A stretch of DNA of 316 nucleotides from a phage: the sequence record BH153105.1, one strand, 5' to 3'. A program made the position numbers and the translations under genes. Below are positions 39 through 316 of the stretch, one piece after another. The notes beneath the pieces were generated by a model that had not been told where the DNA came from, made no database searches, and saw nothing but the letters and a program-made list of their open reading frames with translations. Every line of letters begins with the position of its first letter. Positions within the stretch are counted from its first letter, which is position 1.

Positions 39-149
39 ATGAAATTGGAAGCTGGTAAGACCTATGCGTGGAAAGATGTAAAAGATGCAAACCAATTTTT
101 TAAATGGTATGATGTTGATTATTTTGAAATATCTGCGATTACCGTTTAA
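39..149 (+). CDS. Hypothetical small protein, or the N-terminal part of a frameshifted gene. 36 aa from ATG 39: MKLEAGKTYAWKDVKDANQFFKWYDVDYFEISAITV*. An in-frame ATG at 24 would give 41 aa (MRDDIMKLEAG...).
   Basis: Frame 3 is open from the TAG at 6-8 to the TAA at 147-149. G occupies codon position 1 in 14 of 36 codons (39-146), far above the base composition, whereas frame 1 over the overlapping stretch 85-147 has G at position 1 in only 1 of 21 codons. Wobble positions are A/T-rich and the residue mix (K, D, E, W, Y, F) looks like a soluble protein. The purine-rich stretch GAGAG at 26-30 lies 8 nt before ATG 39 as a weak Shine-Dalgarno-like element; ATG 24 has none. No homology search was possible. 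Confidence 0.5.
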   Translation: MKLEAGKTYAWKDVKDANQFFKWYDVDYFEISAITV

Positions 150-150
150 A

Positions 151-316
151 GTTGCGTCGGTTGATGCGAAAAAAGGATACGTGCGGTCTGTTTATCTTCA
201 TGATGGAACTTATATGAGTTCAACCGATGTAGGTCTATCTTGTTGGTTTCTGGATCTCTCCCGTGTTTTTATGGACATTACACCGGATGCATATTGTTTG
301 AATCCTTCCAAATTTA
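151..316 (+). CDS. Hypothetical protein, 3'-partial (runs off the window end); start unresolved. Translation from 151: VASVDAKKGYVRSVYLHDGTYMSSTDVGLSCWFLDLSRVFMDITPDAYCLNPSKF...
   Basis: Frame 1 has no stop codon from 82 to the window end (last full codon 313-315). G is at codon position 1 in 18 of 55 codons (151-315) and the residue composition is protein-like. The only in-frame starts after the upstream stop are GTG 181 (the AGGA at 174-177 ends just 3 nt before it, too close) and ATG 214 (no Shine-Dalgarno), and the coding signature begins before both. The first in-frame ATG at 85 lies in a stretch that does not look coding in this frame. The 5' boundary given is therefore where the coding signal begins, not a start codon. 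Confidence 0.5.

Follow-up and report, generated by a model that had tools for sequence, protein, structure and literature searches.

RB49p050, a hypothetical protein of the T4-type coliphage RB49 (Krischvirus), is annotated as an intact coding sequence of 154 aa. Together with its upstream neighbor, RB49p051, it forms a pair of tandem paralogs (positions 2507 to 3503 of the RB49 locus, L001), both of which belong to PHROG 5347, represented by T4-like accessory proteins of unknown function. The RB49p050 gene is located in the variable accessory-gene region between nrdG and nrdH and is probably dispensable; comparison of its product with Pfam, NCBIfam, and PDB yielded no significant match. The sequence analyzed here, referred to below as the window (the whole 316-nucleotide stretch of sequence record BH153105.1), carries the first 72 codons of RB49p050, which are identical to those of RB49 except for a single extra T. 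The window copy thus differs from the annotated gene in that extra T and in being cut off at codon 72, where a chimeric joint is found.

Several described situations offer themselves for comparison. The window resembles known cases of homopolymer run-length error in showing a one-base change in a mononucleotide run within a gene that is intact in close relatives, with further run changes nearby and no substitutions. It differs from them in that the affected runs are short (T3, A2, and C1), shorter than the runs with which pyrosequencing and nanopore sequencing usually have difficulty; a low-quality single-pass read would fit such short runs equally well. The window is also similar to the chimeras encountered in Sau3AI, MboI, or DpnII shotgun libraries, having a joint at a GATC shared by both parents, a first piece that lies between consecutive GATC sites, and two pieces that are ∼39 kb apart in the genome, and is dissimilar to them in lacking any vector bases and in beginning with the C, rather than the G, of GATC. 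The likeness to the prfB-type +1 frameshift (CUU UGA C stimulated by a Shine-Dalgarno sequence located upstream) is only superficial, being limited to an in-frame stop after a codon and a T-run in the vicinity, whereas in the window the divergence of the frames precedes the stop by 22 nt, no Shine-Dalgarno-like stimulator is seen, the arrangement is not conserved, and the homologs are encoded in a single frame. The window is very probably a chimeric restriction-fragment clone, or a chimeric read, of RB49 DNA, with three errors in run length introduced during reading, the apparent frame jump being due to one of them.

A blastn search of 50,697 phage records matched the window to 59 Krischvirus records (RB49-like, T4-type coliphages), and by its alignments the window is assigned to the DNA of phage RB49. 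Positions 1 to 256 align with positions 32114 to 31860 of the RB49 genome (NC_005066.1) at 99.6% identity (256 query bases against 255 record bases), with zero substitutions and one gap, which falls in the T-run at 122 to 125. This part of the window covers the 3′ end of RB49p051 on the plus strand (positions 1 to 34, with the TGA stop at 32 to 34; annotated in RB49 as a 175-aa hypothetical protein, CDS L001 2507 to 3034) and codons 1 to 72 of RB49p050, whose annotated start corresponds to the ATG at position 39. No match to the window was found among E. coli complete genomes and plasmids, which ruled out a prophage or plasmid origin. Taken over its entire 316 bases, the window does not faithfully reproduce any phage genome.

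Frame 3 of the window is open from position 9 to the TAA at 147 to 149 and contains ATG codons at 24 and 39, and frame 1 has no stop between 82 and 316 and no plausible start near 150. At 36% G+C, a stop codon is expected about every 13 codons (probability of 0.075 per codon), and the 78 open codons of frame 1 would occur by chance with a probability of ∼0.002, so that a split gene is a reasonable reading of the frames. An earlier analysis of the letters alone (the sequence-only reading) had described just such a break, with frame 3 ending at the TAA and frame 1 coding from about position 151 with no usable start, and had proposed that removal of one T from the TTT at 145 to 147 would fuse the two. 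The stop, the open frame 1, and the missing start are all as described, and deletion of a T at 145 to 147 does fuse the frames; the true frame 1, however, begins at 124 and not at ∼151. Both frames are open over positions 82 to 149, a zone of 68 nt in which a base is repeated three or more times in a row at seven places, and the geometry of the open reading frames alone therefore allows a one-base indel anywhere in this zone.

Alignment with RB49 and its relatives bears out the idea that one additional T within a run of T residues has divided a single gene between two frames; it also moves the site upstream. Where every intact relative examined has TTT, the window has TTTT (122 to 125, plus strand); the alignment and pattern check covered the loci of RB49, Brandy, FL15, W115, and KFS-EC. 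The TTT at 145 to 147, by comparison, does not differ between the window and any of these loci. The shift site thus lies 22 nt upstream of the TAA-adjacent site proposed previously. Frame 3 is genuine coding sequence only from the ATG at 39 to the codon TAT at 120 to 122 (RB49p050 codons 1 to 28, positions 39 to 122, plus strand, identical to RB49), and from the TTG at 124 the true frame is frame 1 (codons 29 to 72, positions 124 to 256, plus strand, TTG AAA TAT CTG ..., encoding LKYLRLPFKVASVD...FLD, again identical to RB49). The extra T moves the RB49p050 frame from 3 to 1, and the wrong frame lasts for eight codons until the TAA at 147 to 149 (plus strand), which in the true frame is part of the Phe-Lys codons TTT AAA, split as T-TAA-A. 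The eight residues FEISAITV (positions 123 to 146) that were included in the previously proposed fusion protein are accordingly out of frame and should read LKYLRLPF; the correct join is ...DVDY-LKYLRLPFKVASVD..., as in the intact protein, ...KWYDVDY-LKYLRLPFKVASVDAKKGY.... The pattern YL..PF.V..D..G.VR, encoded at 124 to 165, is kept in the RB49 frame, and not in that of the sequence-only reading, by both the divergent allele of GEC-3S (∼65% identity) and the paralog RB49p051; the frame 1 residues encoded at 124 to 150 agree with both of these as well as with the intact protein. The comparison of GUU-UAA with prfB loses its basis because the TAA at 147 to 149 is merely the first stop in the wrong frame; the resemblance to a recoding site arose from placing the shift at a stop codon. 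Most likely, the frame jump is an artifact, with the extra T at 122 to 125 and not at 145 to 147. A general caution follows from this case: the geometry of open reading frames cannot place a frameshift where both frames are open, here for 68 nt.

Homologs of RB49p050 were detected by tblastn in all 59 Krischvirus records. Intact single-frame homologs spanning the junction, which had been suggested as a check, were looked for and are present in 58 of them, each in one piece and with 100% coverage; 29 divergent alleles (∼65% identity) are among them, as is an independent resequencing of RB49 (OZ035808.1). The sole split record, that of FL15, carries a different change, A6 to A7 at the equivalent of window positions 169 to 174. 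In this genome (PP400778.1, L003 3159 to 3181), the run has seven A residues versus six elsewhere, and the RB49p050 homolog is annotated as two CDSs, which could reflect either a run-length error in the deposited genome or an independent real inactivation.

The last part of the window, positions 253 to 316, does not continue RB49p050 in the alignment. It matches gene 7, encoding the baseplate wedge initiator, in all 59 records and corresponds to positions 71493 to 71430 of NC_005066.1, ∼39 kb away from the RB49p050 piece (31860 to 32114); the two parts of the window are found at separate places in each of the 59 records. Gene 7 is coded on the strand opposite to the window match, so that, beyond the GATC, positions 257 to 316 represent a fragment of the baseplate wedge gene 7 (RB49p138, minus strand of the window). 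The translation of frame 1 past position 256, SRVFMDITPDAYCLNPSKF, is open by chance, being antisense to gene 7 and not coding. The open reading frame of at least 92 codons that was obtained by fusing the two frames is hence partly spurious, because its last 60 bases come from a different locus, one coded on the opposite strand. As this case shows, an open frame can continue across a chimeric joint into the antisense strand of another gene.

The ends of the first piece coincide with restriction sites. The RB49p050 and gene 7 matches overlap at positions 253 to 256, which read GATC and are present in both parent sequences (CTGGATCATGACC in RB49p050 and CTATGATCTCTCC in the gene 7 antisense strand). 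The RB49 bases that precede window position 1 are GAT, which makes the first base of the window the C of a GATC (L001 2998 to 3001); the junction GATC (L001 3252) is the next such site in RB49, and the window has no other GATC. The first 256 positions of the window therefore represent an entire fragment running from one GATC to the next, to which a second fragment, with its own GATC start inside gene 7, has been attached. With 31 GATC sites per 6,255 bp, the probability that random breakpoints would give this arrangement is ∼10^−6, as an order-of-magnitude estimate. The positions of the joint and of the window start are read as the signature of digestion with Sau3AI, MboI, or DpnII followed by co-ligation. 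Such a digest appears feasible, as RB49-type DNA is probably unmodified: RB49-type phages are not listed among those with gene 42, the dCMP hydroxymethylase gene, and genomes of this type have been described as probably lacking modification and as sensitive to type II enzymes (PMC2993671). A Sau3AI insert cloned into a BamHI site would not be expected to be trimmed in such a way that it starts at the C, and not the G, of GATC. DpnI, PvuI, and other enzymes were considered as the source of this start, and none fits better than imprecise trimming.

The differences between the window and RB49 are all of one kind. Over 316 bases there are zero substitutions and three one-base run-length indels, namely, T3 to T4 at 122 to 125, A2 to A1 at 275, and C1 to C2 at 308 to 309. 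The gene 7 piece accounts for the last two (best identity, 96.9%), with GGAACATT changed to GGACATT (AA to A) at 275 and CCTTCAAA changed to CCTTCCAAA (C to CC) at 308 to 309; neither indel is found in any of the 59 matching records, and, if real, the pair would alter a baseplate protein that is essential, 12 of its residues being replaced (EGFKQYASGVMF by GRIQTICIRCNV). Among natural relatives, the proportions are very different: in the same 6.2-kb region, pairwise comparisons of RB49, Brandy, and FL15 give 252 substitutions to 6 indel events, 185 to 5, and 137 to 3, i.e., ∼40 substitutions per indel. Three indels among three differences would arise as natural variation with a probability of ∼10^−5 or less. 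On the alignments, the 0:3 pattern is attributed to a low-quality read. A homopolymer sequencing error had been one of three options left open in the sequence-only reading, and the combination of three run-length indels with no substitutions favors it. Exact-pattern scans of IMG/VR and of JGI metagenome contigs returned no match to the TTTT run pattern or to the junction between RB49p050 and gene 7; little weight attaches to these negatives, as the wild-type TTT pattern, too, is without a match in both collections, which lack close relatives of RB49. The truncated products of 41 and 36 aa had no exact match in the gene-position index.

The sequence of events that would best account for the window begins with the cutting of RB49 DNA by an enzyme of the Sau3AI, MboI, or DpnII type, specific for GATC. 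A complete 254-bp GATC-to-GATC fragment, comprising the end of RB49p051 and codons 1 to 72 of RB49p050, would have been ligated in vitro to an unrelated fragment beginning at a GATC inside gene 7, and the product would then have been read with ∼1% run-length errors (a T gained at 122 to 125, an A lost at 275, and a C gained at 308 to 309). The added T would push RB49p050 from frame 3 to frame 1, involving neither a ribosomal mechanism nor a mutation of the phage. The indels are presumably read errors and not mutations in the cloned DNA, and the joint presumably arose by ligation in vitro. Random sequencing of small RB49 fragments was reportedly performed by Desplats et al. in 2002 (said to have appeared in J Bacteriol 184:2789). 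A point against the chimeric-read interpretation is that a one-base run change in the same gene is also seen in a deposited complete genome, that of FL15. The window reveals no new biology, and the 316-base sequence is unfit for annotating either a truncated RB49p050 or a fusion of RB49p050 with gene 7 in databases.

Among the other explanations, the one that fares best, although still improbable, is a real frameshift mutation, in which an RB49 stock or the cloned molecule itself carries TTTT and RB49p050 is a pseudogene cut to 36 aa, with the joint remaining a cloning artifact. The location of RB49p050 in the accessory region and its probable dispensability would permit such a loss, and the deposited FL15 genome has its own one-base change (A6 to A7) in the homologous gene. 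However, two more one-base run changes occur within 64 bases of the essential gene 7, which argues for a general run-length error process; there are zero substitutions relative to RB49, both RB49 genome records and the other intact records have TTT, and the TTTT allele is absent from every collection scanned. A true pseudogene is thus very unlikely. There is a slim chance that the extra T is real in some laboratory stock of RB49, where RB49p050 would be naturally inactivated, the joint again being an artifact; should TTTT be present in such a stock, then, along with the A-run change in FL15, it would suggest that RB49p050 is dispensable and prone to run-length inactivation.

A natural rearrangement would take the joint itself at face value, as a phage variant in which RB49p050 is truly connected to the gene 7 antisense strand via the 4-bp GATC microhomology, the joint marking either a duplication or a deletion. 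T4-type phages are known to recombine illegitimately at short microhomologies, and the two pieces run in the same direction along the genome, as they would at the junction of a tandem duplication. Judging by the coordinates, though, such an event would need a duplication of ∼39.6 kb, which would not fit in a 164-kb headful-packaged genome, or, alternatively, a deletion of ∼124 kb, which would remove essential genes. Moreover, the start of the window on the neighboring GATC is explained by a restriction digest only, and the junction is absent from the 59 genomes, IMG/VR, and the JGI metagenome contigs. These observations leave a natural rearrangement highly improbable.

Finally, programmed +1 ribosomal frameshifting or transcriptional slippage that restores full-length RB49p050, which the sequence-only reading had rightly ranked as the least likely of its options, could draw on the U-run found where the shift truly lies, which looks slippery (UAU UUU G), and on an out-of-frame stop close downstream but is rejected as exceedingly improbable, given that the TTT of natural relatives keeps the coding sequence in one frame (58 of 59 records), so that recoding is not needed, that the extra T and the shifted arrangement are conserved in no other genome, that the frames do not diverge at GUU-UAA (144 to 149), that there is no stimulator element, and that the window also carries two other run errors and the chimeric joint.

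The comparison of Krischvirus genomes also revealed some features of RB49p050 and its paralog that are separate from the frame jump. The N-terminal ∼90 residues of RB49p051 match, in addition to PHROG 5347, PHROGs 622, 5804, 3710, 20291, and 22975, which suggests a widespread small N-terminal domain, with no function assigned, in phage accessory proteins. RB49p051 is absent altogether from KFS-EC. In W115 (ON286974.1, L005 107 to 628), the RB49p051 homolog is annotated as 6 nt shorter (ending at 628 versus the equivalent of 634), and the blastn match of this genome is as long as the window despite its TTT, which indicates another small indel near the end of the RB49p051 homolog or in the intergenic spacer. 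RB49p050 itself occurs in Krischvirus as two allele classes, with 29 records each. Between RB49 and GEC-3S, DNA identity is 90 to 100% along the two flanks as well as over the final ∼180 bp of RB49p050 and falls to ∼50 to 63% in a sharply bounded cassette of ∼275 bp that encodes residues ∼4 to 95 (RB49 L001 3047 to 3322 versus GEC-3S L007; equivalent to window positions ∼47 to 322). From this identity profile, the cassette looks like a swapped N-terminal module.
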